A DNA stretch of 64,000 bases from an uncultured Candidatus Saccharibacteria bacterium (GTDB taxonomy: Bacteria; Patescibacteriota; Minisyncoccia; Phycocordibacterales; Zambryskibacteraceae): contig CAZOQP010000001.1 in the NCBI GenBank assembly GCA_964582295.1, positions 148,754 to 212,753 on the forward strand, in the 5' to 3' direction. The notes below the pieces were generated by a model. The model saw nothing but the letters and a program-made list of their open reading frames with translations. It did no database searches and was not told the DNA's origin. Each line of letters opens with the position of its first letter. Position 1 is the first letter of the stretch. The position numbers were made by a program, and so were the translations under genes. Shown here piece by piece: positions 16,912-46,891 of the stretch.

Positions 16912-18555
16912 ATGTCAGGTAGCATAAGAACAGCAGAAGACCTCCAAGAAGCCCTAAAATCGCTTTCAGAGAGCGTAGAGGACTACAATCCTCAAGAGTA
17001 TAGATATATTCTCTATGCCCGTAAATCTACAGACGAAGCCACTAAGCAAGTCCAATCCCTTCCAGACCAACTAAGAGAGTGCAAAGAATACGCCGAGAGA
17101 AATAACTTAAAGATAGGAAAGATATTTCAAGAAGCCGAATCTGCTAAAGAGGCGGGAATAAGACCAATATTTAGAGAAATGATAGGACTTCTTGAAGCAG
17201 GAAAGTATGATGCAATTTTGGCTTGGCATCCAGATAGATTAGCTAGGAATATGCGAGATGCAGGAGAAATTATTGATTTGGTTGATAAGAGAACTATCAA
17301 AGACCTTAAATTTGTTAGCTTTGATTTTAATAATTCCGCATCAGGGAAAATGCACTTGGGAATTACCTTTGTTTTGTCCAAGCATTATTCAGACCATTTG
17401 AGCGAGAGTGTCAGTAGAGGCAACCGCAATAGAGTTGCCGAAGGGAAATATATCAATAAGCCCAAACACGGTTACATAAAAGACCCGAACCAGTATTTGA
17501 TACCTGACATCCATAACGATAACTTCATACTCATTAAAAACGCTTTTAAATTGAGATTAGAAGGTAAAACTCTTGAAGAAATTGCTGACTATCTAAGTGA
17601 AAATAACTACAGCATTACGAGAAAAAATAAGATAAAAGGGCTAGTAAGAAGTGCTTACAGAATGACCAAGCAGAGAGTGAGTAATTTTATGAAAGACCCT
17701 GTTTATACAGGCATATTGCAGTATGGAAAAAGCGGAGTGGTCAATCTGATTGAGCTTTATGGATTCCAACCAATGTTAAACGTGGAGGAGTTTATGAAGA
17801 TAAATAAGTTGGTTCATAATAAGGAGCTAATTAAGCTGGCTAGGAGCTTCCGCAAGGGAGAAGGCGTCATAGCAAACCTGATGAGAGAAATGGTTATTTG
17901 TGCAGATTGTGGCGAGACAATGACCCCTAATATTCCAAGAAACAGATATAACGATAGATATTTTTACTTCCGTTGTGATAATAGCGATTGCATTAGGAAG
18001 GGTAAATCTATAAGGGCAAAGGTAATTACCAGTTATATTTATGATTATCTTAATACCCAACCTTTTTCCTCTCCTGCTTCTTACGCTCATTATAAAGACG
18101 AGATGCGAAGGGTGTCAGAACAACGCCTAATAGAAGCCAAAAGAAATTTACGCTCCCTACAAACCCAAAAACTAAAGCTGGAGGAGAAAGTTGAAACGAT
18201 AAAGAATATGCTCGCTGGGAATGAAAGGGATGATATTAAGAATCTTTACAGAGAAGATTTGAAGCCGACCCAAGCAGAATTGAGGCAGATTGAGGAGAAA
18301 GTAGACAAAGTAAAGACCTATATAGAGGCAGGAAAGGACAGTATCTTAACTTATGAGGAATTTATTGAACTTATGGAAAATATGCCTAAGGTTATGAAGA
18401 AAATGAGAAATATGAATGAGCTGGACTATATTATCAGAAAAATCTTCTTGAACTTTACTGTAGCTCCTAAAAAGGTAATGAAATCAACGCTAAATACACC
18501 TTTTGATGCCTTAGAAGTCCAAAAAGTATCACTTGGTGCGCGGGAGAGGACTTGA
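16912..18555 (+). CDS. large serine recombinase (resolvase/invertase N-domain + recombinase domain + zinc ribbon)
   Basis: YARKSTDEATKQVQSLPDQ (catalytic Ser region), LAWHPDRLARN, zinc ribbon CADCGETM...FYFRCDNSDC, coiled-coil C-terminus; stop lies inside tRNA-Leu(GAG). Confidence 0.8.
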   Translation: MSGSIRTAEDLQEALKSLSESVEDYNPQEYRYILYARKSTDEATKQVQSLPDQLRECKEYAERNNLKIGKIFQEAESAKEAGIRPIFREMIGLLEAGKYDAILAWHPDRLARNMRDAGEIIDLVDKRTIKDLKFVSFDFNNSASGKMHLGITFVLSKHYSDHLSESVSRGNRNRVAEGKYINKPKHGYIKDPNQYLIPDIHNDNFILIKNAFKLRLEGKTLEEIADYLSENNYSITRKNKIKGLVRSAYRMTKQRVSNFMKDPVYTGILQYGKSGVVNLIELYGFQPMLNVEEFMKINKLVHNKELIKLARSFRKGEGVIANLMREMVICADCGETMTPNIPRNRYNDRYFYFRCDNSDCIRKGKSIRAKVITSYIYDYLNTQPFSSPASYAHYKDEMRRVSEQRLIEAKRNLRSLQTQKLKLEEKVETIKNMLAGNERDDIKNLYREDLKPTQAELRQIEEKVDKVKTYIEAGKDSILTYEEFIELMENMPKVMKKMRNMNELDYIIRKIFLNFTVAPKKVMKSTLNTPFDALEVQKVSLGARERT

Positions 18556-18618
18556 ACCTCCACGCCTTGCGGCATAAGAACCTCAATCTTACGTGTATAC
18601 CAATTTCACCACCCGCGC
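18534..18618 (-). tRNA. tRNA-Leu (anticodon GAG), CCA encoded
   Basis: GCGCGGGTGGTGAAATTGGTATACACG...; anticodon loop TTGAGGT; long variable arm; T-arm GGAGG-TTCAAGT-CCTCT. Confidence 0.75.
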
Positions 18619-32584: not shown

Positions 32585-33010
32585 ATGTTGACCTTGAAAG
32601 TTAAGAAACTTCACCCCGATGCAAAGTTGCCTGTGTATGCCAAAACAGGTGATGCGGGATGTGACCTTTTTTCGCTTGAAAATACGGAAATAAAATCCGG
32701 AGAGAGGGTGCAGGTGAGGACTGGCATTGCTGTGGAATTCCCGGAAGGGTATTTCGGAGCGATCTGGGACAAAAGCGGTCTTTCACACAAACACGGACTG
32801 AAAACCATGGGGGGTGTTGTAGACTCGGGATACAGAGGAGAGATAATGGTGGGGGTCATTAATCTTTCTCAGGAAACATATAAACTGGAAGCAGGACACA
32901 AGGTGGCCCAGATGATAATTCAGAAAATAGAAAATGTTCATATAGAGGAGTCTCACGAACTTTCTTCTACTGAAAGAGGAGAAGGAGGATTTGGAAGTAC
33001 TGGAAAATAA
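32585..33010 (+). CDS. dut: dUTP diphosphatase
   Basis: GDAGCDL, RSGL-like, GVVDSGYRGEI, ERGEGGFGSTG motifs. Confidence 0.85.
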   Translation: MLTLKVKKLHPDAKLPVYAKTGDAGCDLFSLENTEIKSGERVQVRTGIAVEFPEGYFGAIWDKSGLSHKHGLKTMGGVVDSGYRGEIMVGVINLSQETYKLEAGHKVAQMIIQKIENVHIEESHELSSTERGEGGFGSTGK

Positions 33011-34653
33011 TGAAAAATACGATACTCCAAAAAGTTGAAAGCTGGCTCAAAGAAGTTCTTCCTGAAGCGGGGAGTGTTTCGTTTGTGGAAAATATTTCTT
33101 TCGGAGATATCACGACGAATGCTGCACTTGCAATTGCTGCTAGGGAAAAAAGGAAACCCTTGGATGTGGCGAAAGAAATTGCGCAAAAATTGAGAGTTGA
33201 AAAACCTGATTTTATTTCAGACATAAGTGTTGCGGGGCCCGGGTTCATCAACTTCACTCTAAGCGATCCATTCCTCCTCTCTCAAATAAAACATACCAAC
33301 ATACTTGAGAATGTTGGTATGTTGTCGGGGAAAAAGGTGATAGTTGAATACACGGATCCCAATCCTTTCAAGGAATTTCATATAGGGCATCTGATGTCTA
33401 ACGCCGTAGGTGAAGCTATTTCCCGCCTCGTGGCTTCCCAAGGGGCTGAAGTTAAAAGAGCATGCTACCAAGGAGATGTGGGGCTTCATGTGGCAAAAGC
33501 TGTCTGGGGGAAAATCCAAGATCAAGCCCTTTCATGGGGTGAGGCATATGTTTTCGGTGAAAGGGAGTATGAGAACAATAAAGAAGCTATCCAGATAATA
33601 AACAAGGCAATATACGAAAGGAGCGATGAAAAGGTGAATACGCTTTATGATGCCGGCAGGAAAACATCTCTTGAATATTTTGACGATATGTATGAAAAGC
33701 TCGGCACGAAATTCAATTATTTATTTTTTGAGAGCGAGACGGCGCCCATTGGCACCGCATTGGTAAAAGAATTTTTGGGAAAAGTTTTTGAAGAGAGCGA
33801 TGGAGCGATTGTTTTTCATGGAGAGAAATATGACCCGGCGCTTCACACACGTGTTTTCATCAGTTCCCAGGGTTTGCCCACATACGAAGCAAAAGAATTA
33901 GGCCTTGCGAAACTGAAGTGGGATAAAAATCCTTACGACGCTTCCATTGTGGTGACGGGAAATGAAGTGAATGATTATTTCAAGGTGGTTCTCAAAGCAT
34001 CCGAACTTGTGATGCCAGAGCTTGCAGGAAAAACGGTTCACATTTCACACGGAATGCTTCGTTTGCCGAGCGGGAAAATGTCTTCGCGTACCGGAGATGT
34101 GATATCTGCCGAGTCTCTAATTAAAGAGGTGAAAGAAAAAGCTCTTGAGGTAATGAAAGCTTCCGGCCGCGCAGGGGAAGACGAGGCATTGGCGGAAAAA
34201 GTGGCTGTGGGGGCTATCAAATTTTCAATTCTCAAACAGTCTCCGGGAAAAGATGTGATATTTGATATGAACAGGTCAGTTTCTTTTGAAGGTGATTCGG
34301 GCCCGTATTTGATGTACACCCACGCGCGACTTTGTTCAGTAATTGAAAAAGCTCGCGCAGAAGGAATTGAACCAGCGGCAGACATAGTGCCGGCACAAGG
34401 AAGAGATGTGGCGCGTATTATTGCAAGATTTCCTGATGTTGTAGCGCGAGCTGCAGAGGAATTCGCCCCGAATCATATCGTTGAATATTTGCTCGTACTT
34501 GCATCTACTGTGAACTCTTATTATGCAAAAGAGCAGATAGTGGTGGCGGGTGATGCAGGTTCACCAGCCCGTCTAGGGCTCATTTTTGCTGCTCGGGAAA
34601 CTCTCTCTAAAGGCCTCTCTCTTCTTGCTATGGCTGCGCCGGAGAAAATGTAA
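33010..34653 (+). CDS. argS: arginine--tRNA ligase
   Basis: HIGH-class motif PNPFKEFHIGHLMS, KMSSR, C-terminal DALR anticodon-binding domain; ATGA overlap with dut. Confidence 0.85.
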   Translation: MKNTILQKVESWLKEVLPEAGSVSFVENISFGDITTNAALAIAAREKRKPLDVAKEIAQKLRVEKPDFISDISVAGPGFINFTLSDPFLLSQIKHTNILENVGMLSGKKVIVEYTDPNPFKEFHIGHLMSNAVGEAISRLVASQGAEVKRACYQGDVGLHVAKAVWGKIQDQALSWGEAYVFGEREYENNKEAIQIINKAIYERSDEKVNTLYDAGRKTSLEYFDDMYEKLGTKFNYLFFESETAPIGTALVKEFLGKVFEESDGAIVFHGEKYDPALHTRVFISSQGLPTYEAKELGLAKLKWDKNPYDASIVVTGNEVNDYFKVVLKASELVMPELAGKTVHISHGMLRLPSGKMSSRTGDVISAESLIKEVKEKALEVMKASGRAGEDEALAEKVAVGAIKFSILKQSPGKDVIFDMNRSVSFEGDSGPYLMYTHARLCSVIEKARAEGIEPAADIVPAQGRDVARIIARFPDVVARAAEEFAPNHIVEYLLVLASTVNSYYAKEQIVVAGDAGSPARLGLIFAARETLSKGLSLLAMAAPEKM

Positions 34654-34778
34654 TGCCCCAAGCCATAATATGGCTATTCGGTTTTTTTGTTTTTAAATAT
34701 TCATACTTGCGGTAATTTTCTCATAGTGATTATATGGGGTGAGAAGCACACACCCCACATCCTTTCCGAGGGCTTGCC

Positions 34779-35423
34779 ATGAGATCTAGTGCAGCGGTGC
34801 AGGTGGCAGGAGGGACACTAAACGTCCCGAAGTCTTCCCAATCTCGCTACGAGGGCATCACTGACGAGAAATTGGTAGAGATGTTCCTCTCAGGAGAGGA
34901 AAGTGCCATGGGGGAGATATACAGACGTTACTCCAGGCGCCTAAGGTTTTTCGTGTTCAAGAGCGTGGATGATTGGGAGCGGTCGGAAGATCTCGTGCAG
35001 GAGACTTTCGCACGAGTTAGCAAACATCTGGAGAGGTTCGATAATGGCCGTAAGTTCTCAACATGGATACACACCATCGCGGCGAACCTGGCCAAAAACG
35101 AACTAAGGAACCGACGCCGTAGACCAATAGTTCTGTTCCAGGAACTTGAAAGAGATGGAGGCGAAGATTCGCGTGCGGTGGAGTTTGAGGACAAGAGGCA
35201 AGATCTGGACCGCCTACTTGAACAGAGGCGTCTGCGGAAACTCGTCAGAGAGTGTATGGATAAACTGCCAACACACCACCGCGTGATTTTCTTTATGAGA
35301 GAGATGGAAGGGCGGACATACGCGGAGATGGCAAAGATCCTTCGGTGCCATGAGGGCACTGTAAAATCACGCCTCAATCGGGCCAGACAGTCATTCAGTC
35401 TGTTGATAGCCCCGCATCGCTGA
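34779..35423 (+). CDS. ECF-type sigma-70 family RNA polymerase sigma factor, GC-rich
   Basis: Region 2 (LVQETFARV...WIHTIAANLAKNELR) and region 4 HTH (RTYAEMAKILRCHEGTVKSRLNRARQ). Confidence 0.7.
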   Translation: MRSSAAVQVAGGTLNVPKSSQSRYEGITDEKLVEMFLSGEESAMGEIYRRYSRRLRFFVFKSVDDWERSEDLVQETFARVSKHLERFDNGRKFSTWIHTIAANLAKNELRNRRRRPIVLFQELERDGGEDSRAVEFEDKRQDLDRLLEQRRLRKLVRECMDKLPTHHRVIFFMREMEGRTYAEMAKILRCHEGTVKSRLNRARQSFSLLIAPHR

Positions 35424-35506
35424 GGACAGACAATAAGCATCAAACGGCCCCGAGATTTGAATAACTCCGGGCCGTTTTTCTATTTCAGATAAGTTATAAT
35501 AGGAGC

Positions 35507-38500
35507 ATGAGCGAAAAGGCGGGAGAAGATAAATCTCTCCTTTCGAAGCCGCTTCCGAGCGGACTCCTGAAGGAAAGCTTGCCCACCGCCGAAGAGGCGG
35601 TTCTTTCATTTTGGAAAGAAAATGGGATTTTTGAGAAGTCTCTTGCGAAAAATGCCGGTAAACGTCGCGGCCTCTTCGGCGGTAAAAAAGAATTCGTATT
35701 TTACGAAGGTCCGCCTACAGCGAACGCCCGCCCTGGCATTCACCACCTCATATCTCGGGCTTTCAAGGATGTGATCCTGCGCTACAAAACCATGCAGGGT
35801 TTTCATGTTCCTCGCCGGGGCGGCTGGGATACGCACGGCTTGCCGGTAGAGCTTGAAGTGGAAAAAAAGCTTGGTTTTTCATCCAAAAAAGATATAGAAA
35901 ATTACGGCATCGCACGTTTCAATGAAGAATGCAGAAAAAATGTCGGCACCTATATAGATGAGTGGCGGAAATTCACGGACAGGATCGGATATTGGCTTGA
36001 TCAGGATAATGCTTACTTCACTTACACTCCTCAATACATTGAGTCTGTCTGGAACATAATTTCGCAAGCCCATAAAAAAGATCTTTTGTATAAAGACTAT
36101 AAGGTGGTGCCGTGGTGCCCTCGCTGTGGCACCGGTCTTTCTTCGCACGAATTGGCACAGGGTTATAAAGATGTAAAAGACTTGTCTGTATACGTTAAGT
36201 TTCCGGTTGTCGGGGAACCGAATACTTTTTTCCTGGCGTGGACGACGACACCCTGGACTCTTGTCGGTCACTTGGCTCTTGCGGTGGGAGAAAATATTGA
36301 TTATGTGAAAGTAAAGTCGGGAGAAGATTTTTTCATCCTGGCCGAAGCGCGTCTTTCAGTTCTCGGGGACGGTTATGAAATTATTAAAAAAAGTATAAAA
36401 GGAAAAGAACTTATAGGCACTAAATATCTGCCACCGTATACATATTTGGAAACAGAGATTCCGAGAGCAGAAAGTGGGAAATTAGAAAAAGCTTTCAAAG
36501 TTTATTCTGCCGATTTCGTGAATACGGAAGACGGTACGGGAATTGTTCACACAGCCGTTATGTATGGCCAGGATGATTTTGAGCTAGGCACAAAAATAGG
36601 CCTGCCAAAACATCATATGGTGGATGAAACGGGCCACTTCGTGAAAGGCACCGGGTTTTTGGAGGGAAGGTTCGTAAAAGATGAAGAAACTGATGTGGAG
36701 ATAATAAAAGATCTTGCCCACAGAAATCTCCTTTTCAAAAAAGAGAAGTACGAACATTCATATCCTCACTGCTGGCGCTGTGGCACACCTCTCATTTATT
36801 ACGCGCGTGATTCATGGTATGTCAGGATGAGCAAGCTTCGCGACGCACTCGTTTCTGAAAATAAAAAAATACACTGGGAGCCGGAACATATCCGCGACGG
36901 CCGCTTCGGAGAATGGCTGGCAGATGTAAAAGACTGGGCTATTTCCCGTGAGCGCTACTGGGGTACACCTCTTCCTGTGTGGGAATCAGCAGATGGCGAC
37001 AGAATAGTGGTGGATTCAATAGAAACTCTTAAAAAATATTCAAAAAAATCCGGCAATCGCTACATGGTGATGCGTCATGGTGGAACGGAAGGCAATGCTC
37101 ATGAAAAAGTTAGTTTTGCGGGGCAGGAGAAAGACCATCTGACGGACGTTGGCCAGAAGCAGGCAGAAAAAGCCGCTCGCGACCTTAAAGGAAAAAACGT
37201 GGAACTCATTTTCGTATCACCTTTCGCCCGCACCAAGGAGACAGCGGAGATAGTGAGGAAAGGGCTCGGCCTTGCGGAGGAGAACGTTATTGAGGATGCG
37301 CGGCTTATTGAAATAAATCCCGGTATTTTTGACGGAAAGAATTGGAACGAATATCACAATTTCGTGTACAGGCAGGGCGATGGCTGGTTCACCGAGCCCA
37401 TCCCGCAAGGTGAATCTTTTGTGGAAGTGCGAAAGCGTGTAGGCGAATTTCTTTACGAGCTTGAAAGGAAATACAAAGATAAGAACATACTCATAGTTAC
37501 TCACGGTGCGCCCGCATGGCTTTGCTTTGTGAACGCAGGGCTTTTTACTCCGACAGGCAAGGAATATCAGCCGGCTGATACCCGGGCGTTCATTAAAGAA
37601 TTCAAACGTTTTGATAATGCAGAGGTGAGGGAATTGCCTTTCGTACCTCTTCCGCATGACGAAAATTTTTCCTTAGATCTTCATAAGCCGTATATAGATG
37701 AAATAGTTTTGGAAAAAGACAATAAAGAATACAGGAGAGTGAAGGAGGTGATGGATGTGTGGTTGGACGCCGGTTCCATGCCTTTTGCACAAGTGCATTT
37801 TCCATTTGATACAAAAAATATCGCATACCCGGCGGATTATATATGCGAAGGTGTGGATCAAACACGAGGATGGTTTTATACATTGCATGCGGTGGGAATG
37901 CTTATGGACCGGGGCCGTGCCTACAAAAATGTAATATGCCTCGGGCACATTCTGGATAAGGAAGGAAAAAAGATGTCCAAATCCATCGGTAACACCATTG
38001 ATCCATGGGAAGCTGCCAAAGATTTCGGGGTGGACGCCTTGCGCTTCTGGATGTTCGCGGTAAAAGAACCGGGAGAACCCAAGAATTTTGATCCTGAATC
38101 CGTGCGTGATATGTCGCGTAAAGTTTTTGGCTTGGCGACCAACGTACTCTCTTTTTATGAGATGTACAAAGTGAATGATGAAGCCGAGTGTGATTCAGAG
38201 AATGTTTTGGACAGGTGGATAATGGTGCGCCTTGCTGAATTAAGCGAAACAGCTCAAAAAAATATGGATGAGTACCGCATTTTGGAGGCGGCGCGCGCGG
38301 TGAGGGATTTCATAGGGGATCTCTCCCAGTGGTATGTCCGTCGTTCAAGGGAGCGTTTCAAAGGAGAAGGAGATGACGCGCGCGCCGCCTCCCGAACTAC
38401 CCGCTACGTGCTCCACGCACTTGCCCGCATTATGGCTCCCATGACACCTTTCTATGCCGAGGCACTTTGGGCGAGTGTGAAGGGTGCCGCAGATCCTGAA

Positions 38501-39016
38501 AGCGTCCATCTGGCGGACTGGCCGGCGGTTCCTAAAGCAGATATGCGCCTTATCCAGCAAATGAGAGAATTGCGGGAGATAGTTTCCCACGCACTTCTAC
38601 TCCGTTCGCGTGCAGGCATAAAGATACGCCAGCCGCTAAAAGAACTTCGTATAAAAGATAAAACTATCGGCTCAAACAAAGAACTCGTCCTGCTTATAAA
38701 AGATGAACTGAACGTAAAAAATATTGCCGTTGATGAAACACTTACGGAAAAAACTTTTCTGGTACTGGAAATAACCCCGGAGCTTAAAGCTGAAGGGGAA
38801 ATGAGGGAACTTTTGAGAAATATTCAGGAAAAAAGAAAAGAGGCGGGGTTTTCTCCGAAAGATGAAGCGAAAGTGGTCGTATCCGCATCTTCATCCGCAA
38901 AAAATATTCTCATGCCATTTGAGGAGCTGATAAAAAAACAGGGGAATATAAAAGAACTTGTGTGGGAAGATTCGCAAAATGATGAAGCGCAGGTGGTGAG
39001 CGTAGAAAAATCATAA
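35507..39016 (+). CDS. ileS: isoleucine--tRNA ligase (type 2) with inserted histidine-phosphatase (PGAM-like) domain
   Basis: PPTANARPGIHH (HIGH), CP1 editing domain, KMSKSIGN; ~200-aa segment 37055-37665 has RHG...N and LIVTHG histidine-phosphatase motifs. Confidence 0.85.
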   Translation: MSEKAGEDKSLLSKPLPSGLLKESLPTAEEAVLSFWKENGIFEKSLAKNAGKRRGLFGGKKEFVFYEGPPTANARPGIHHLISRAFKDVILRYKTMQGFHVPRRGGWDTHGLPVELEVEKKLGFSSKKDIENYGIARFNEECRKNVGTYIDEWRKFTDRIGYWLDQDNAYFTYTPQYIESVWNIISQAHKKDLLYKDYKVVPWCPRCGTGLSSHELAQGYKDVKDLSVYVKFPVVGEPNTFFLAWTTTPWTLVGHLALAVGENIDYVKVKSGEDFFILAEARLSVLGDGYEIIKKSIKGKELIGTKYLPPYTYLETEIPRAESGKLEKAFKVYSADFVNTEDGTGIVHTAVMYGQDDFELGTKIGLPKHHMVDETGHFVKGTGFLEGRFVKDEETDVEIIKDLAHRNLLFKKEKYEHSYPHCWRCGTPLIYYARDSWYVRMSKLRDALVSENKKIHWEPEHIRDGRFGEWLADVKDWAISRERYWGTPLPVWESADGDRIVVDSIETLKKYSKKSGNRYMVMRHGGTEGNAHEKVSFAGQEKDHLTDVGQKQAEKAARDLKGKNVELIFVSPFARTKETAEIVRKGLGLAEENVIEDARLIEINPGIFDGKNWNEYHNFVYRQGDGWFTEPIPQGESFVEVRKRVGEFLYELERKYKDKNILIVTHGAPAWLCFVNAGLFTPTGKEYQPADTRAFIKEFKRFDNAEVRELPFVPLPHDENFSLDLHKPYIDEIVLEKDNKEYRRVKEVMDVWLDAGSMPFAQVHFPFDTKNIAYPADYICEGVDQTRGWFYTLHAVGMLMDRGRAYKNVICLGHILDKEGKKMSKSIGNTIDPWEAAKDFGVDALRFWMFAVKEPGEPKNFDPESVRDMSRKVFGLATNVLSFYEMYKVNDEAECDSENVLDRWIMVRLAELSETAQKNMDEYRILEAARAVRDFIGDLSQWYVRRSRERFKGEGDDARAASRTTRYVLHALARIMAPMTPFYAEALWASVKGAADPESVHLADWPAVPKADMRLIQQMRELREIVSHALLLRSRAGIKIRQPLKELRIKDKTIGSNKELVLLIKDELNVKNIAVDETLTEKTFLVLEITPELKAEGEMRELLRNIQEKRKEAGFSPKDEAKVVVSASSSAKNILMPFEELIKKQGNIKELVWEDSQNDEAQVVSVEKS

Positions 39017-39020
39017 GAAT

Positions 39021-39611
39021 ATGCATAGAATCTACTCATCGCCTGCTGTAGTACTTTCCTGCCGAGGAGCGGGGGAGGGAAACATGCTTGTTACTTTTCT
39101 TTCTCGAGATTTGGGCCTTATACGTGCCAAAGCTATTTCATCTCGTAAAGCGGAGGCCAAACTCAAGGGCCACATCGTCCCTTACACCCTTGGAACTTAC
39201 GGCTTCGTGCGTGGCAAGAACGGCTGGCGGCTGGTGCACGCGGATGCCTCGGAGAACATCTTCTTTTCTTTGGGCGAAATTCCATTGTCTCTAGCACGTC
39301 GCACTCTTATGGGCCGTGTACTTTCACTTGTGGGAAGGGTTTCAGAAGAACAGAAGAACCATGAACTTTTTGAATGTATCACTTCAGGGCTTAAATTTTT
39401 GAAAGTTGCGGACGAGGAGAATCTCAAGGCCTATGAAATAATTTTTGTAGGTAGGGTGATGGCTCTTTTGGGATACGTTTCCTTTGATGACATGCCGGAG
39501 CCGTTCAAAGAATGGAAAACTTTCAGTCGCGGTCTCATAGAAAGCTCTCTTCCTCACACTAAAATGATACTTTCGCGCATAAATGAGGGGCTCAAGGAAA
39601 GTCATCTTTAA
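39021..39611 (+). CDS. recO: DNA repair protein RecO (short form)
   Basis: N-terminal OB-fold pattern AVVLSCRGAGEGNMLVTFLSRDLGLIRAKA. Confidence 0.6.
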   Translation: MHRIYSSPAVVLSCRGAGEGNMLVTFLSRDLGLIRAKAISSRKAEAKLKGHIVPYTLGTYGFVRGKNGWRLVHADASENIFFSLGEIPLSLARRTLMGRVLSLVGRVSEEQKNHELFECITSGLKFLKVADEENLKAYEIIFVGRVMALLGYVSFDDMPEPFKEWKTFSRGLIESSLPHTKMILSRINEGLKESHL

Positions 39612-39624
39612 CATCATACGCTCC

Positions 39625-39693
39625 GCAACCTGGCTAAAAAGAGACCACTCCGGGGCGTTTGCCCAAGTCTTAGTCTCTTTTTAGCCAGGTTGC
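39625..39693. repeat. nested palindromic repeat, copy 2 (core B with different outer arms)
   Basis: gcaacctggctaaaaagagaccactccggggcgtttgcccaagtcttagtctctttttagccaggttgc. Confidence 0.8.
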
Positions 39694-39729
39694 TTCCGCT
39701 ATAATTTTTTACTACAGGGTATAATAATA

Positions 39730-41637
39730 ATGAATATGGATCAGAAAAAAGACGGCCGCCTGGATAGATTGGAGGAAGCTCTGTATTCCCGTGATGAGAA
39801 CCGTTTACCAAAGACAGAACGTTCCCAAATCCCGCTTTCAGAGGCGGTGGACGTGCCGGAGGAGAATGCTTTTTCTGACACCCCTCTTTCCGAGCTTGTT
39901 TCAGCTGACAAGGAGCATCCTCACAGAAAAATTTTTGAGAAAATTTTTCTGGTTTCTCTCGGATTTGCAGCGATTGCCCTGCTCTTTGCCGGCTATCGCT
40001 TTTTCCTTGGCGGTCCTTCTGTCTCGGAAAAAAATATAGATATCATCATCGCCGGGCCATCCATTGTTCCTGCTGCAACGCCGCTTTCGCTTGATGTGCG
40101 GGTGGAGAACAGAAATGCCCGTGCCATAGAAGATGCGGTCCTGAAAATAACATATCCGCGGGATGCGCGGGCGGTAGAAAGCCGTGAGCGGGTTCTTGAA
40201 TCTGAAGAATTGGAAATCGGCTCTCTTGGCTCTGGAAAATCGGCAGGCAAGCAGGTTTCAATGGTGCTTTACGGGGAAAAGGATGACGTTGCTGTTTTTT
40301 CTACACGTCTTGAATATCACATTCCCGGCTCGCAGGCCACTTTTGTGAAAGAATCGTCTTTTTCTCTTGCCATCGGCTCTGCCCCGGTCATTCTCCATGT
40401 TTCTATGCCAACGAGGGTTGTTGCCAAGCAGCCGTTTGATATGAGCATCTCTGTTGAATCAAATTCTGCGGATACTATCGGCAATGTAACACTCACCGCA
40501 GAATATCCTTTCGGATTTATCCTAGATTCATCAACACCAAAACCTTTCACAGATGACAATGTGTGGCGTCTGGGTGATATGCCGACCGGAAACAAGAAAA
40601 CTATACGTATGCGCGGAACACTTGAAGCGGAAAACGATGAAGAGAGGACTTTCAGATTTTCTGTAGCTGTAGCGGGGGCGGACAGAAGCGCAACAACCCA
40701 AAGCGAGATCGCCTCGGCCCTTTCCACTGTTTCCGTATCACGGCCATTCCTTTCTTTGAGCGTGGGAGTGCCCGGAGGAAGCACTAGTGCGGCACCTGGC
40801 GATCGTATTCCCGTTGAAATAAACTGGACCAACAATCTTTCCGTTCCTGTTACAAACGCGGTCGTGGAGGCATCACTTTCGGGCGTTTATGACGAGACCA
40901 GTCTCGCCCCCCAGCAAGGAGGATTTTATAATTCACAGAACAGAACCATTTCCTGGAGCCAGTCCGGAAATGGAGATCTCGCCTCCATTTCGCCAGGTGA
41001 GAGGGGGCGTGTGCGATTTACTCTTGCGATCCCTAGAACTTTGCCTGCGGGTGTACAAAATCAAGGAGCTTCCGTTCACGTGATAATGAGAGGTGTTACT
41101 GTTGACCAAAATGTGGCGGGGAATGTTTCAAGTAGTGCAGATCTTTCTTTCAAATTCAGAGCAAGCCCGACAGGAGGCGGCTTTGCTACACGTTCATCAG
41201 CAGTATTTTCACAGAAAGGCCCTATTCCTCCGCAAGCAAATGTTGAAACCACTTACTCTGTGGTGCTTTCCGCGGCCAGTTCTTTTGCGGATGTCAGAGA
41301 CGCTTCAATGACCGCTACTCTTCCCCAGAATGTTTCCTGGAATAACCTGATCTCGCCCGGAAGCGAAAGAATGACATTTGATGATAGAACGCGAGTGCTC
41401 ACATGGAATATCGGCAATCTCGCGGCTGGCGCAGGGCAGCGCAATGCGACCATTGGAGTATTCATAATCCCAAGTGTTTCGCAAATAGGAGCCGCTCCAG
41501 CCCTTCTTTCAAACCTGACGCTTCAGGGAACAGATAGTATTACGGGGGAAAATATTTCAGCCAATCTTTCAGATGTTACGACCGACATACCAAATGATGC
41601 GGGGGCAGTGCAGAATGCGGGAGTGGTAGGAGAGTAA
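39730..41637 (+). CDS. membrane-anchored large extracellular protein (repeated beta-sandwich-like domains)
   Basis: Single TM after acidic N-terminus, then ~550 aa Ser/Thr/Asn/Val-rich extracellular region. Confidence 0.5.
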   Translation: MNMDQKKDGRLDRLEEALYSRDENRLPKTERSQIPLSEAVDVPEENAFSDTPLSELVSADKEHPHRKIFEKIFLVSLGFAAIALLFAGYRFFLGGPSVSEKNIDIIIAGPSIVPAATPLSLDVRVENRNARAIEDAVLKITYPRDARAVESRERVLESEELEIGSLGSGKSAGKQVSMVLYGEKDDVAVFSTRLEYHIPGSQATFVKESSFSLAIGSAPVILHVSMPTRVVAKQPFDMSISVESNSADTIGNVTLTAEYPFGFILDSSTPKPFTDDNVWRLGDMPTGNKKTIRMRGTLEAENDEERTFRFSVAVAGADRSATTQSEIASALSTVSVSRPFLSLSVGVPGGSTSAAPGDRIPVEINWTNNLSVPVTNAVVEASLSGVYDETSLAPQQGGFYNSQNRTISWSQSGNGDLASISPGERGRVRFTLAIPRTLPAGVQNQGASVHVIMRGVTVDQNVAGNVSSSADLSFKFRASPTGGGFATRSSAVFSQKGPIPPQANVETTYSVVLSAASSFADVRDASMTATLPQNVSWNNLISPGSERMTFDDRTRVLTWNIGNLAAGAGQRNATIGVFIIPSVSQIGAAPALLSNLTLQGTDSITGENISANLSDVTTDIPNDAGAVQNAGVVGE

Positions 41638-41642
41638 ACTTC

Positions 41643-41745
41643 GCTCGGGGTATTCCCTGAAAATGCACGAAAATTTTCTGCTGAAAATTTTCTCCGTCCG
41701 TCGCCGACCGCTCCTCCCAAGGCATTTTCAGGAAACACCCCGAGC
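41643..41745. repeat. palindromic repeat, copy 4 (TIR-A arms with different interior)
   Basis: gctcggggtattccctgaaaatg ... cattttcaggaaacaccccgagc; interior has gaaaattttc direct repeat. Confidence 0.7.
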
Positions 41746-41807
41746 TTCGCAGGGAAAATAGGAATAAACAGTATGCTAGGATTACTTTTATGAAAGAGGA
41801 GGGGAAG

Positions 41808-43001
41808 ATGGAAAAACTGGTCTCTTTGGCGAAGCGTCGCGGTTTTATATATCCGGGTTCTGAGATCTATGGCGGCCTTGCCGGCTCATGGGATTACGGT
41901 CCTTTGGGCGCTATTTTGAAAGAGAAAATCGCCTGCTTGTGGAAGCAGATGTTCATTTTTGATAGGGAGGATATGTATCCTTTAGACAGTTCCATCATCA
42001 TGAATCCGAAGGTCTGGGAGGCGAGTGGCCATGTGGCTGGGTTTGCGGATCCTCTTGAGAACGGAGGAATGTTCAACACCATGTTCAAGACACAGGTGGG
42101 GGCGGGCGAGGAAGCTGTCACTAGTTATTTGCGCCCCGAAACTGCTCAGGGAATTTTTGCTAATTTCAAGAATGTTATTGATTCATTCCATCCGAAACTT
42201 CCTTTCGGCATCGCCCAAATAGGTAAGGCATTCAGGAATGAGATAGCGCCGCGGGATTTTCTTTTCCGCAAGCGCGAATTTGAGCAGATGGAAGTGGAAT
42301 ATTTCGTGAATGAAAAAGATTGGGAGAAATATTTTGAGGAGTGGAGAAAAATAATGCATTCTTTCGCCGGAGCAGTGGGTATAAAAGAGGTACACGAGCT
42401 TGAAGTGCCGGATAAAGATCGTGCGCACTATTCAAAACGCACTATTGATTTTGAATTTGAATATCCTTTCGGCCGAAAAGAATTATGGGGCCTTGCTTAT
42501 CGCACAGATTTTGACCTTAAGAGCCACCAGGTATCTTCCGGCGCGAAGCTTGAATATTTTGATGAGGATACAAAAAATTCCTTTACTCCGCATGTAATAG
42601 AGCCGTCTCTTGGTTTAGACAGAACAGTCCTCGCAGTGCTCCTTTCTGCATACGCAGAAGATGCACTCGGAGAAGAGAAGCGTATATATCTGAAACTTCC
42701 AAAAAATATTGCACCTGTGCCACTTGCAGTTTTTCCTCTTCTTAAAAATAAGCCGGAACTTGTTTCAAAAGCCCGCGAAGTTTATATGATGCTTCGTAAA
42801 ATTTTCCCCGGAGCTCTATTTGATGACAACGGAAACATAGGCAAGCGCTATCGTAGACAAGATGAAATAGGGACACCATTCTGTATCACTGTTGATTTTG
42901 ACACTCTTGAAGACAGCACAGTGACAGTACGCGACCGCGACACGGGGGAGCAGAAAAGAGTGAAAATAGAAGAACTACAGGAGTCCCTAATGGCGGCTTA
43001 A
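41808..43001 (+). CDS. glyQS: glycine--tRNA ligase (alpha2 homodimeric type)
   Basis: LAKRRGFIYPGSEIYGGLAGSWDYGPLG; class II motifs; RBS GAGGAGGGG before ATG 41808 (listed ORF from 41790). Confidence 0.8.
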   Translation: MEKLVSLAKRRGFIYPGSEIYGGLAGSWDYGPLGAILKEKIACLWKQMFIFDREDMYPLDSSIIMNPKVWEASGHVAGFADPLENGGMFNTMFKTQVGAGEEAVTSYLRPETAQGIFANFKNVIDSFHPKLPFGIAQIGKAFRNEIAPRDFLFRKREFEQMEVEYFVNEKDWEKYFEEWRKIMHSFAGAVGIKEVHELEVPDKDRAHYSKRTIDFEFEYPFGRKELWGLAYRTDFDLKSHQVSSGAKLEYFDEDTKNSFTPHVIEPSLGLDRTVLAVLLSAYAEDALGEEKRIYLKLPKNIAPVPLAVFPLLKNKPELVSKAREVYMMLRKIFPGALFDDNGNIGKRYRRQDEIGTPFCITVDFDTLEDSTVTVRDRDTGEQKRVKIEELQESLMAA

Positions 43002-43068
43002 AGATACAGAGGGCTGCCTTATCCGTATCAATTTGCCCAGGATTGGGTGAAAGTGTAATATTCCTCAA

Positions 43069-44355
43069 ATGCTAAAACCTCAAAAACACGTTTTCCCGAG
43101 CGGCCTCACCCTTATTACCGTGCCTATGAAAAATTCTCCTACGGTTACGGCGGAGGTGATGGTTGAAACCGGTTCTAAATATGAGAAGAAAGAGCAGGGT
43201 GGCCTTTCCCATTTTTTGGAGCATATGTGCTTCAAGGGCACTCCTACACGCCCCACCTCAGAAATTCTTGCCAGGGAACTTGATGAACTTGGCGCGCAAT
43301 ACAACGCCTATACGTCAACGGAGATGACGGCCTACTTTGCCAAAGGCAGACCCGAGCATGTAAATAAACTTTTGGACGTTGTTTCGGATATGTATATCAA
43401 TTCTGTTTTTAATCCGATGGATCTCAAAAAAGAAAAGGGTGTGATACTCCAGGAAATAAATCTTTCTGAAGACAAGCCGGAACGGATAGCCAACCGACTT
43501 TTTGATAAAACTGCACATGGTGATCAGCCGGCCGGCCGTTCTGTTCTGGGTACAAAAAACACCACTCAATCTTTCACTTCGGAAGATTTCAGGAAGTACA
43601 GGGACTCTCATTACAAGACAAAAGCCACTACTGTCATCGTGGCGGGGGATGTGAACCCCAAAGACATACAAAAATCTGTGGCAAAATTTTTTGCTGCCAT
43701 GCCGCGCGGCTCTAAACCCGGAAAAGAAAAAGTCATGATAAAAAGGACCGGGCCGCGCATAGGCGTTCACCCGAAAGAAACAGATCAGGTGCATTTCCTT
43801 TTCGGCACCCGCACTTTCCCTTACGGAAACAAGAATAATGCCGCTCTCTCTGCCATGACCTCTGTATTATCTTCCGGCTTCAGCTCGCGTCTTCTTATAA
43901 AAATGCGCGAAGAGCTAGGCATCTGCTATTACGTAACAGCTCACAATGATCCCTCTACCGATCACGGCGAATTCGCTGTTTCTACAGGAGTAGACCCGAA
44001 GCGTTTGGACATTGCCATAGAAGCGGTGGCAGAAGAATTCAAAAGATTGGCCAATGAAAAGGTGCCTGTTAAAGAACTTTCAAAATCTATAGAGAAGCGT
44101 GTATCCAATATGTATATGAGTTTGGAATCTTCAGACGATGTGGCAGATTATTTCGGCCACCGATGGCTTTTCAACCGGGACATAAAAACCCCAAAAGAGG
44201 TAGAAAAAGAAATACGCTCCGTTACACCTGAAAGCATACAGCGGGTGGCACGGACAATTTTCACCCCGGAGAACGTCATCTTTTCCGTGGTCGGCAGGGG
44301 GCTTACCAAAGAAGGCATCTCTAAACTGGTGAACAAACACGTCAAGAATTGGTGA
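43069..44355 (+). CDS. M16-family zinc metallopeptidase (pitrilysin-like)
   Basis: Inverted zinc-binding motif HFLEHM...E. Confidence 0.7.
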   Translation: MLKPQKHVFPSGLTLITVPMKNSPTVTAEVMVETGSKYEKKEQGGLSHFLEHMCFKGTPTRPTSEILARELDELGAQYNAYTSTEMTAYFAKGRPEHVNKLLDVVSDMYINSVFNPMDLKKEKGVILQEINLSEDKPERIANRLFDKTAHGDQPAGRSVLGTKNTTQSFTSEDFRKYRDSHYKTKATTVIVAGDVNPKDIQKSVAKFFAAMPRGSKPGKEKVMIKRTGPRIGVHPKETDQVHFLFGTRTFPYGNKNNAALSAMTSVLSSGFSSRLLIKMREELGICYYVTAHNDPSTDHGEFAVSTGVDPKRLDIAIEAVAEEFKRLANEKVPVKELSKSIEKRVSNMYMSLESSDDVADYFGHRWLFNRDIKTPKEVEKEIRSVTPESIQRVARTIFTPENVIFSVVGRGLTKEGISKLVNKHVKNW

Positions 44356-44374
44356 TAGTATATATATCAATATC

Positions 44375-45430
44375 ATGAATAACGGCCATACGCGCCTATC
44401 CATAGACAGTCGCTCTGTCATAAAAGTGATAGCCATCCTCGCAGTAGCTTTCATGGTTTTCCTGGTGCGGGATATCCTGCTCGTCATTCTTACTGCCATC
44501 GTCATCGCATCTGCCATAGAGCCGGGTGCGCGTTTATCCAAGAAACTTCACCTGCCGCGCACCCTTGTGGTTCTGGGTATTTACGTTCTCACCGCCTTAC
44601 TTTTTCTTGGCACACTTTATTTCCTTCTGGTGCCGCTTCTTTCGGAATCAGCTTCTTTCCTTTCAAGTATTCCTGAATACACCGAATCCTTTGCTGCCGC
44701 GACCACCACCCCTGCCTTCTTCGGGTCGCAATTCATCCAAGGCATCACCTCTACTGTTTCTCTGCCAAACCTCATAGAACAGATAAACGGCGCCATCGTG
44801 CACATTTCAAGCGGTGTCTTTGGCACCATTGATGTCATCTTCGGTGGCGTCCTCTCCTTTGTTCTCATAATCGTACTTTCCTTTTATCTTGCGGTGCAGG
44901 AAGACGGTATCACCAAATTTTTGCGCATCATAACCCCGGCAAGTAAAGAGAAACACATTATTTCTATATGGCGCCGCTCTCAGGAAAAGATCGGCCTTTG
45001 GATGCAGGGTCAGCTCTTGCTTGCCGTTATCGTGGGTGTGCTTACATTCTTAGGCCTCACGCTTCTCGGTGTGCCAAATGCTCTCCTTCTGGCTTTCATT
45101 ACGGGAATGCTTGAGATCATCCCTCTTTTCGGTCCCATTCTTGCCGCCGTGCCGGCTGTCATCATTTCGTTTGCGTCCGGAGGATTCGGCCTTGCCGCAT
45201 TGGTAACAGCTCTCTTCGTTATCATTCAGCAATTTGAAAGCCATCTTATATATCCGCTGGTGGTGCGCAAAGTGGTTGGGGTGCCTCCTATCATTTCCAT
45301 CATCGCTCTCGTTATCGGCGCCAAACTCGCCGGCTTCTTAGGCATTCTCCTTGCTGTTCCCTTGGCGACTGTCATCATGGTCCTTCTTGAGGACATGGAA
45401 AAGGCCAAGCACGCTCCTGCTGTCGAATAA
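44375..45430 (+). CDS. AI-2E family transporter (PerM/UPF0118)
   Basis: Eight TM helices, conserved AI-2E pattern. Confidence 0.6.
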   Translation: MNNGHTRLSIDSRSVIKVIAILAVAFMVFLVRDILLVILTAIVIASAIEPGARLSKKLHLPRTLVVLGIYVLTALLFLGTLYFLLVPLLSESASFLSSIPEYTESFAAATTTPAFFGSQFIQGITSTVSLPNLIEQINGAIVHISSGVFGTIDVIFGGVLSFVLIIVLSFYLAVQEDGITKFLRIITPASKEKHIISIWRRSQEKIGLWMQGQLLLAVIVGVLTFLGLTLLGVPNALLLAFITGMLEIIPLFGPILAAVPAVIISFASGGFGLAALVTALFVIIQQFESHLIYPLVVRKVVGVPPIISIIALVIGAKLAGFLGILLAVPLATVIMVLLEDMEKAKHAPAVE

Positions 45431-45445
45431 TCTGCCGCCCGAATA

Positions 45446-46891
45446 ATGGCGAAAAAACCTGTTTACATCACCACCACTCTGCCCTATGTGAATGCGGAGC
45501 CCCATGTGGGGCACGCCATGGAATTCGTGCGGGCGGATGTTATTGCCCGCTTCAGGAAAATGGAGGGAGATGAAGTTTTTTTCAACACCGGCACAGATGA
45601 GCACGGCATAAAAATATATAAAGCTGCCCAGGATGCCGGGCGCGACGTGAAGGATTTTGTAGATGAATATGCGGCGCGCTTTCGCGAGATATTGAAACTT
45701 TTGAACGTGAGCGAGGACATTCATTTTGTGCGTACAACGGATGAAAAGCATGTGCGCGCGGCAGAAAGCTTTTGGAAAAAGTGCGAAGAAAACGGGTTTA
45801 TATACAAAGGCCAGTACACCGTGAAATATTGCACCGGCTGTGAACTGGAAAAAACAGATTCGGAACTTGAAGACGGCCGCTGCCCGCTTCACTCCACACT
45901 TGAGATAGAGCTCATAGACGAAGAAAATTATTTTTTCAAATTCTCGGCTTTTGCAGAAAAATTATCTAATCTTTATGAAACCGAGGAAAATTTTGTGGTG
46001 CCAGAAGTACGATTGAATGAGATACGCTCTTTCGTAAAGCAGGGGCTTCAGGATTTCAGCATCTCGCGCTTGGCTTCAAAAATGCCGTGGGGTGTGCCAG
46101 TTCCTGGTGCGCCGGAGCACGTGATGTATGTGTGGTTTGACGCCTTAGTTTCATACATTTCCACTTTGGGTTGGCCCGACTCGGCCGAAACAGGAGATTT
46201 TAATAAGTTCTGGGCGGAGGGGGAAACCATTCAATATGCAGGGAAAGACAATCTGCGTCAGCAGTCGGCAATGTGGCAGGCCATGCTTATGGCGGCGGGC
46301 CTTCCTAATACGAATCATGTAGTGATAAACGGATTCATCACAGGGGAGGGAGGAGTGAAAATGTCTAAAACTTTGGGCAATACTATTGACCCGAAGGAAA
46401 TCGTGGAAACATTCGGCGCGGATGCTTTCAGATATTTCGTGTGCCGCGAACTCTCAACATTTGAAGATTCTCCCTTCACAACGGATGCTTTCAAAAATGC
46501 TTACAATGCCAACCTCGCGAATGGCCTCGGCAATTTAGTGTCGCGGGTGATGGCTTTAGCTTCCAAATACTGCAATCCGATTTCTGAGACTCCGGAATTG
46601 CCGGGAGAATTCGTATCATTTTTAAATGAATTCAAAATACATGCAGCGGCTAATATGGTGTGGAGGCACATAGGGGAGGCAGATAAAATGATGCAGGAAA
46701 AGGAGCCGTTCAAGGTGGTGAAGACCGATCCTGAAGCTGGAAAAATGGTCCTTATGGAGCTTGTGAAGCGACTCTCTGTTATAGCCGAAATGCTTGTGCC
46801 GCTTATGCCTGAAACGGCGGAAAAAATAAAACTTCTCATAAAAGAGAATACCTCGCCCGTCTCGCCTCTTTTCCCGCGCTTTGAAAGCTAG
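45446..46891 (+). CDS. metG: methionine--tRNA ligase
   Basis: LPYVNAEPHVGHA (HIGH), zinc knuckle CTGCELE...CPLH, KMSKTLGN. Confidence 0.85.
   Translation: MAKKPVYITTTLPYVNAEPHVGHAMEFVRADVIARFRKMEGDEVFFNTGTDEHGIKIYKAAQDAGRDVKDFVDEYAARFREILKLLNVSEDIHFVRTTDEKHVRAAESFWKKCEENGFIYKGQYTVKYCTGCELEKTDSELEDGRCPLHSTLEIELIDEENYFFKFSAFAEKLSNLYETEENFVVPEVRLNEIRSFVKQGLQDFSISRLASKMPWGVPVPGAPEHVMYVWFDALVSYISTLGWPDSAETGDFNKFWAEGETIQYAGKDNLRQQSAMWQAMLMAAGLPNTNHVVINGFITGEGGVKMSKTLGNTIDPKEIVETFGADAFRYFVCRELSTFEDSPFTTDAFKNAYNANLANGLGNLVSRVMALASKYCNPISETPELPGEFVSFLNEFKIHAAANMVWRHIGEADKMMQEKEPFKVVKTDPEAGKMVLMELVKRLSVIAEMLVPLMPETAEKIKLLIKENTSPVSPLFPRFES

Follow-up and report, generated by a model that had tools for sequence, protein, structure and literature searches.

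Aminoacyl-tRNA synthetases are among the most conserved of enzymes and, to our knowledge, editing domains are the only catalytic domains that are generally recognised as being nested within them in bacteria. The CP1 editing domain is a universal example, an aminoacyl-ester hydrolase that interrupts a Rossmann-fold loop of the isoleucyl-, valyl- and leucyl-tRNA synthetases (IleRS, ValRS and LeuRS). Here we describe an IleRS gene, ileS, within a window of 64,000 nucleotides, the whole stretch of DNA that was analysed, taken from contig CAZOQP010000001.1 (assembly GCA_964582295.1, positions 148,754 to 212,753). The CP3 subdomain of its product harbors a complete domain of the histidine phosphatase superfamily. 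Like CP1, this module is a hydrolase-type domain nested in the catalytic core of the synthetase, but its fold is unrelated, its predicted chemistry is of the phosphate-ester type, and it is restricted to certain lineages.

The closest host enzymes of known structure are IleRS2 of P. megaterium (8C8V/8C8W) and the IleRS of T. thermophilus (1ILE), with which the protein shares the order of Rossmann, CP core, CP1, CP2, CP3, anticodon-binding and C-terminal domains. Its likeness in fold to the type-2 enzymes is reflected in target-normalised Foldseek TM-scores of 0.81-0.89, and the GXHH form of the signature motif is common to it and IleRS2. In contrast to these two enzymes, however, its CP3 contains a 206-amino-acid (aa) enzyme domain and no zinc cysteines, and phmmer and Foldseek comparisons with the PDB found no such module in any solved IleRS. 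For the module itself, the closest systems are the small histidine phosphatases of branch 1 (PF00300), namely PhoE, PspA, GpgP and CobC, and its fold is PhoE/PspA/CobC-like. A curated precedent for an IleRS with an extra enzyme domain exists in NF040702 (ileS_w_GNAT), but the module here is a phosphatase rather than an acetyltransferase; the protein reaches 319.9 bits against a cutoff of 1999, and no GNAT domain appears in its Pfam scan. The best NCBIfam model for the insert (96 bits, in the phosphatase half) is that of RNase H/acid phosphatase (NF005567, PRK07238), in which a phosphatase of this type is joined to a nucleic-acid enzyme. That fusion, however, is end to end rather than nested, the partner enzyme differs, and the score falls far under the cutoff of 326. 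A nearer parallel is provided by a family of ValRSs, typified by the protein P0271, in which the same type of module, with its catalytic residues, is nested in the catalytic domain of a paralogous class Ia enzyme, although in another loop, with a patchy distribution among relatives and with other cap residues.

No model for a phosphatase-bearing IleRS is present in NCBIfam 20.0, and the combination, as judged from these comparisons, is that of a class Ia synthetase and an accessory hydrolase nested in it, and lies outside every curated family tested. The initial annotation of this DNA had supposed the architecture to be undescribed, and full-text literature searches bear this out, with no paper found in which IleRS or ValRS is said to contain a histidine phosphatase; neither the module nor Patescibacteria is mentioned in recent specialist papers on the evolution and architecture of IleRS (including PMC10485003). 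Public databases nevertheless contain many such proteins, some of them automatically annotated, for instance by JGI as 'valyl-tRNA synthetase/broad specificity phosphatase PhoE'. The NCBI name is frequently just 'class I tRNA ligase family protein', even though the present protein exceeds the TIGR00392 cutoff, and automatic naming seems to be defeated by the nested domain.

The gene and the parts of it that concern the insertion are as follows, all on the + strand.

35507..39016: ileS, type-2 isoleucyl-tRNA synthetase with nested phosphatase, 1169 aa (open reading frame, Pfam, TIGR00392, alignment to 8C8W)
36977..37042: CP3 N-terminal arm, aa 491-512, with the first zinc-knuckle CxxC replaced by ESADGD (8C8W alignment, WECEGCQ against WESADGD)
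37043..37660: nested histidine phosphatase (branch 1) domain, aa 513-718 (PF00300 and 8C8W alignment)
37073..37078: R523-H524 of the RHG motif, with the predicted phospho-accepting His, invariant in 120 homologues
37229..37231: R575, phosphate-pocket Arg, invariant in homologues
37310..37312: E602, predicted general acid/base, 99% conserved, E or D in embedded representatives
37502..37504: H666 (THG), second catalytic His, invariant
37547..37660: return arm, aa 681-718, with conserved F695, F699, F702, N704, E706, R708, L710, F712, P714, P716 and H717
37661..38209: CP3 C-terminal arm (DLHKPYIDE..., with the second CxxC replaced by LEKDNKEY) and second Rossmann half, including KMSKS (8C8W alignment)

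CP3 is a defined subdomain whose topology differs between IleRSs, and which binds zinc in the enzyme of T. thermophilus but not in those of C. albicans or S. aureus (PMC7191050); its stem residues adjoin the synthetic active site (PMC12077802). In the alignment to 8C8W, residues 22-512 of the protein correspond to residues 7-478 of P. megaterium IleRS2, and residues 719-1142 to 482-918, such that about 206 aa (513-718) stand in place of about 3 residues of CP3. The initial annotation is thereby upheld in several respects, as it had read 35507-39016 as an IleRS of 1169 aa, with a segment of about 200 aa between the RYWGTPLPVW and DLHKPYIDE blocks. It had also remarked on the absence of the local zinc cysteine pairs, which is true of the CP3 knuckle, where both CxxC pairs of P. 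megaterium and T. thermophilus are exchanged (ESADGD and LEKDNKEY); the loss is confined to this knuckle, and C204, C207, C422 and C425, the zinc cysteines of the CP core, are still present and are conserved. The domain does lie at the coordinates then given, 37055-37665, except that it begins four codons earlier, at 37043, and ends at 37660. An excess of 150-250 aa over a typical IleRS was an overestimate, since the protein exceeds P. megaterium IleRS2 (PmIleRS2, 1032 aa) by only about 137 aa.

The identity of the insert is clear at the level of the superfamily. In a Pfam scan of the full protein, aa 521-672 match His_Phos_1 (PF00300) with an E-value of 2.9e-33 and 115.6 bits, against a gathering cutoff of 21.7, and the excised insert alone gives 1.6e-34 and 119.7 bits; the profile search that had earlier been proposed as a check on the domain thus returns a strong match. 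The module has the alpha/beta fold of the superfamily, and a domain-only AF2 model has a pLDDT of 94.8 and a pTM of 0.92. Translation of 37055-37665 yields MRHGGTEGN, VSPFARTKETAEIV, EINPGIFDG, GESFVEVRKRV and ILIVTHGAPAWL, so that all the motifs previously reported are indeed found, and the branch-1 domain is complete in RHG, second Arg, Glu proton donor and second His. Within the alignment of the 120 closest homologues, R523, H524, N530, G549, R575, G606, R644, H666 and G667 are invariant and gaps are nearly absent from the insert. Its mean column identity is 0.67, the anticodon-binding domain being at 0.66 and the C-terminal domain at 0.46. Beyond these homologues, some 90 embedded cluster representatives are only 35-58% identical to the present sequence; almost all of them show the R-H...R...E/D...H pattern, and R523-H524 is kept in essentially all.

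The earlier description of the domain as phosphoglycerate-mutase-like is right for the fold but not for a mutase function, as the insert falls far below the cutoffs of the equivalog and subfamily models for true phosphoglycerate mutase (dPGM). The equivalog models for alpha-ribazole phosphatase CobC and phosphoserine phosphatase PspA likewise score below their cutoffs (TIGR03162, 92.8 against 162.9; NF045917, 75.0 against 350). The insert resembles these enzymes, but the resemblance does not extend to an assignable specificity. The nearest structures to the module are metabolite phosphatases, whereas protein phosphatases match lower (SixA 16.8, PGAM5 14.7 and Sts-2 13.9). By these profile and fold comparisons the module is a phosphatase-type member of the superfamily that belongs to no characterised subfamily, and from the intact set of catalytic residues we infer that the nested phosphatase would be active as a phosphomonoesterase.

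The return arm appears to be a particular attribute of the IleRS-embedded form. When the insert is used as a query, free-standing relatives of about 190-210 aa cover positions 1-161, whereas the IleRS-embedded copies cover positions 1-206, and among the matches examined the arm was seen only in the latter. The one tail-bearing match without synthetase flanks that was looked up (P0133) lies on a 636-bp contig fragment. The neighbors of two free-standing relatives, P0139 and P0150, on contigs of 1-3 kb, include none that is informative on substrate.

The fusion is found throughout a large clade. PF00300 is present in all of the 120 closest homologues of the protein (56-68% identity, 1104-1345 aa), which answers the survey of relatives suggested in the initial annotation. 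These homologues come from NCBI, JGI, ENA and Logan assemblies named as Nomurabacteria, Zambryskibacteria, Paceibacteria, Parcubacteria or Minisyncoccia, and the organism of this IleRS is shown to be a Patescibacteria (Paceibacteria/Parcubacteria-type) bacterium. A single-sequence query against genome contigs returned 11 loci, with the match unbroken over both junctions in ten related GTDB species genomes and in one divergent locus. When 1.84 billion cluster representatives (50% identity) were searched exhaustively with only the insert as query, the hosts of the best 150 matches are IleRS-like in 86 cases and class Ia synthetases in 88. Nearly all of the 86 share the same site, with the N-terminal part ending at about 494-512 and the C-terminal part resuming at 719-723. 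Altogether, independent assemblies supply more than 200 sequence clusters with the same architecture. Within the window, neither GC content nor skew shows a break at the insert, and flanking repeats are absent. The nested fusion is old, lineage-wide and under purifying selection.

The divergent locus, L011 (CAZPYM010000003.1, 4507-8103), encodes an IleRS of 1198 aa with His_Phos_1 at the same CP3 site (aa 537-707). The metagenome-assembled genome that contains it bears the label 'uncultured Gammaproteobacteria', and 'Saccharibacteria' is the label of several TPA_asm loci; either the taxonomy of these labels is unreliable or the fusion reaches beyond Paceibacteria.

Modules of this type are also nested in ValRS. 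P0271 is a complete ValRS of 1140 aa, with the ValRS C-terminal arm and with His_Phos_1 at aa 577-752, after STLGWP. The insertion loop differs from that of IleRS and lies in the Rossmann fold between WFSSG and YDILFFW, and the hosts of this family are Magasanikbacteria-type Patescibacteria. The module, with its catalytic residues, is present in 32 of the 120 closest ValRSs, which are interleaved with relatives of about 866-900 aa that are without it; the spacing from WFSSG to DILFFW is 35 aa in the latter and about 215 aa in the former. Because such close relatives, with flanks about 83% identical, do without the module, it must have been gained or lost recently in ValRS. P0271 also contains an extra segment of about 97 aa (aa 442-538). 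The aromatic cap residues of the IleRS copies, W613, Y616, H617 and F628, are not shared by the ValRS copies, and the IleRS-embedded, ValRS-embedded and free-standing modules are mutually about 38-46% identical, with fragments contaminating the free-standing class.

Some synthetases harbor several copies, or other modules in addition. The IleRS P0160 (1087 aa) has one module in CP3 after the second CxxC and another after the HYPFAN loop, with a third beginning just before the contig end, while the ValRS fragment P0136 (1161 aa) has four; in both proteins the copies occupy several different loops and RHG is kept in all. In P0200, an IleRS of 1066 aa from JGI, His_Phos_1 lies inside a CP3 whose zinc knuckle is intact, a GNAT domain follows in the next loop, after HFPFEN, and within the editing domain, in frame, lies a stretch similar to a REP-associated tyrosine transposase, which reaches 81.3 bits with NF047646 (cutoff 80); this protein could be genuine or a chimeric assembly. 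Finally, P0023 and P0119/P0272 (Candidatus Nomurabacteria, UniRef A0A1F6XKS5) have an added C-terminal HD phosphohydrolase domain at aa ~1140-1258, and since this comes on top of His_Phos_1, these synthetases hold two phosphohydrolase modules.

The mechanism proposed for the nested domain follows the established chemistry of the branch-1 histidine phosphatases. H524 would attack the phosphate of the substrate to form a phospho-histidine intermediate, the phosphoryl group being held by R523, R575, H666 and N530, and E602 would protonate the leaving group and then activate a water molecule. The protein is best read as a bifunctional enzyme, an IleRS and an active phosphomonoesterase that are probably tethered rather than channelled. 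Such an arrangement would mean tethering and stoichiometric co-expression in a reduced genome, and not a precise channel to the aminoacylation or editing site. The histidine phosphatase fold probably tolerates insertion into loops, which would explain its entry into several surface loops of both IleRS and ValRS.

The reading that we favor, with a probability of roughly 0.5, is that the phosphatase has a small phosphorylated metabolite or nucleotide as its substrate, the synthetase providing in the main a scaffold for it that is expressed constitutively. It is preferred because insertion sites and copy number vary, because the module is dispensable among close ValRS relatives, because the cap residues differ between hosts, and because the nearest structures are metabolite phosphatases. 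Three observations weigh against it. The enrichment of class Ia synthetases among the nearest representatives (88 of 150) is not predicted by neutral hitch-hiking, the stem residues of CP3 border the synthetic active site (PMC12077802), and loss of the module was never seen in the IleRS clade among the 120 homologues, which suggests that the module matters to this IleRS. These same facts (that the module is associated strongly and repeatedly with IleRS and ValRS, that the IleRS clade retains it strictly, and that CP3 is positioned beside the active site) support a coupled function, in which the phosphatase would have a ligand of the synthetase itself as its substrate and would form a third catalytic site beside synthesis and editing. 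That substrate could be the CCA end of a tRNA bearing a 3'(2')-phosphate or pyrophosphate (in end-healing, or to undo a toxin modification), AMP, or some other phosphorylated nucleotide. The co-occurrence of HD and GNAT modules fits such a role, as do precedents for the fusion of this type of phosphatase to nucleic-acid enzymes (the RNase H/acid phosphatase model, MutT1 and tau55). The four observations that favor a scaffold all speak against coupling, however, and the module, with a mean net charge of -3.1 and a pI of 6.4, is not basic, although the CCA-binding editing domain is acidic too. We regard a coupled function as possible but on balance doubtful, and consider it slightly more doubtful again that the module constitutes a third catalytic site of Patescibacteria class Ia synthetases that is coupled to tRNA charging, either by removal of phosphate or pyrophosphate from the CCA end or by hydrolysis of a nucleotide product or inhibitor.

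Other explanations carry less weight than either scaffold or coupling. The module might be regulatory, sensing a phosphorylated metabolite or dephosphorylating a protein, whether the synthetase or a partner, and so tuning IleRS through CP3, but this is unlikely, given that metabolite phosphatases match its structure clearly better than protein phosphatases do and that neither tandem arrays of 2-4 active-looking copies nor dispensability in ValRS relatives suits an allosteric switch. It is very unlikely that the fold is simply a structural filler for a lost CP3 zinc knuckle, with catalysis gone. The zinc cysteines are missing exactly at the site of the domain, and CP3 is known to be topologically variable (PMC7191050), yet a filler needs none of the catalytic residues that are kept in the 120 homologues (~58% identity) and in about 90 embedded representatives, and the P0200 module coexists with an intact knuckle. 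An artefact has a negligible probability, be it a chimeric assembly, a fusion by frameshift or an intein-like element excised post-translationally. A chimera is contradicted by the recurrence of the same in-frame architecture in hundreds of clusters from independent assemblies, and by a sequence with no break in composition and no repeats; the possibility of a chimera, raised in the initial annotation, can therefore be set aside. A mobile in-frame element fares no better, as the Pfam scan reports only synthetase families and His_Phos_1, with no HINT family, and the junction residues are wrong. Inteins need C or S at the N-junction, and HN followed by C, S or T at the C-junction, whereas here the C-junction reads P-H-(N/D)-E, so that the residue following the junction is E/N and not C, S or T.

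What emerges is a second, unrelated hydrolase with an intact predicted active site inside the catalytic domain of the only IleRS in the window, and across a large clade of Patescibacteria, with the same type of module having apparently entered ValRS independently. If the module is coupled to aminoacylation, this would be a new synthetase activity, and the IleRS and ValRS of minimal genomes would carry a built-in tRNA-end repair or anti-toxin chemistry, extended in some members by HD and GNAT modules. If instead the scaffold reading is correct and the module is autonomous, these proteins would be a clear example of ultra-small genomes packing metabolic enzymes into essential scaffolds, and CP3 and the loop after WF(D/S)SG would represent insertion-tolerant sites of use for engineering. 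A dedicated family model would improve the annotation of these proteins, and the natural pairs of ValRSs with and without the module, such as P0281 and P0285 with flanks about 83% identical, offer a ready-made experiment.

The host enzyme is an IleRS by TIGR00392 (864.7 bits against a cutoff of 621.4), in a match that is split into two stretches flanking the insert. The open reading frame of 1169 aa starts with ATG and matches the Pfam families tRNA-synt_1, Anticodon_1, DUF5915 and His_Phos_1. Assignment to type 2 follows from phmmer E-values of 4e-230 with PmIleRS2, against 6e-98 with PmIleRS1 and 9e-101 with SaIleRS1, and agrees with the Foldseek ranking of the full-length model, in which IleRS2 and eukaryotic IleRS come out on top; the best PDB matches are PmIleRS2 (8c8v/8c8w), yeast IleRS-tRNA (8wnd) and TtIleRS (1ile). 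The full-length AF2 model has a mean pLDDT of 88.7 and a pTM of 0.82, with the insert blocks at 92-97. The remaining features of the host, again on the + strand, are listed below.

35735..35746: class I signature motif, non-canonical G77-I-H-H80 (GXHH, not HXGH), from sequence reading
36176..36766: CP1 editing domain, approximately aa 224-420, with WTTTPWTL and GTGIVH intact and D357 invariant (alignment, conservation)
37970-37984: KMSKS, aa 822-826, with K822, M823, S824 and K825 invariant
38210..38986: anticodon-binding domain (PF08264, aa 902-1045) and type-2 C-terminal domain (DUF5915, aa 1047-1160), from Pfam

Isolated structures of the T. thermophilus editing domain (1wk8 and 1ue0) align to aa 219-421, and WTTTPW, GTGIVH and D357 of the editing site are invariant in the 120 homologues. 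With the KMSKS, editing and signature motifs all conserved, the IleRS itself looks fully functional. In the same alignment H79 and H80 are each conserved at 90% or more, with PGIHH as the consensus of the family. GXHH is a natural variant of the signature motif that is accepted in IleRS2, and the natural GXHH swap raises the mupirocin Ki by as much as ~1000-fold (PMC10485003); the IleRS2 of D. radiodurans is resistant to millimolar mupirocin, and the whole phosphatase-bearing clade may therefore be hyper-resistant. The protein is not one of the MupA/MupB mupirocin-resistance IleRSs, scoring 739 and 755 bits with NF000257/NF000258 against a cutoff of 1900.

The 64-kb window contains no second IleRS and no second His_Phos gene. 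Four synthetase genes lie within about 14 kb (33010-46891), those for ArgRS (33010-34653), IleRS (35507-39016), GlyRS (41790-43001) and a compact MetRS of 481 aa (45446-46891), and of the four only IleRS matches the phosphatase module. Farther upstream, a large serine recombinase of 547 aa (Resolvase, Recombinase, Zn_ribbon_recom) is encoded at 16912-18555 on the + strand, and its 3' end overlaps a tRNA-Leu(gag) gene at 18534-18618 on the - strand, an overlap that may represent the border of an integrated element.

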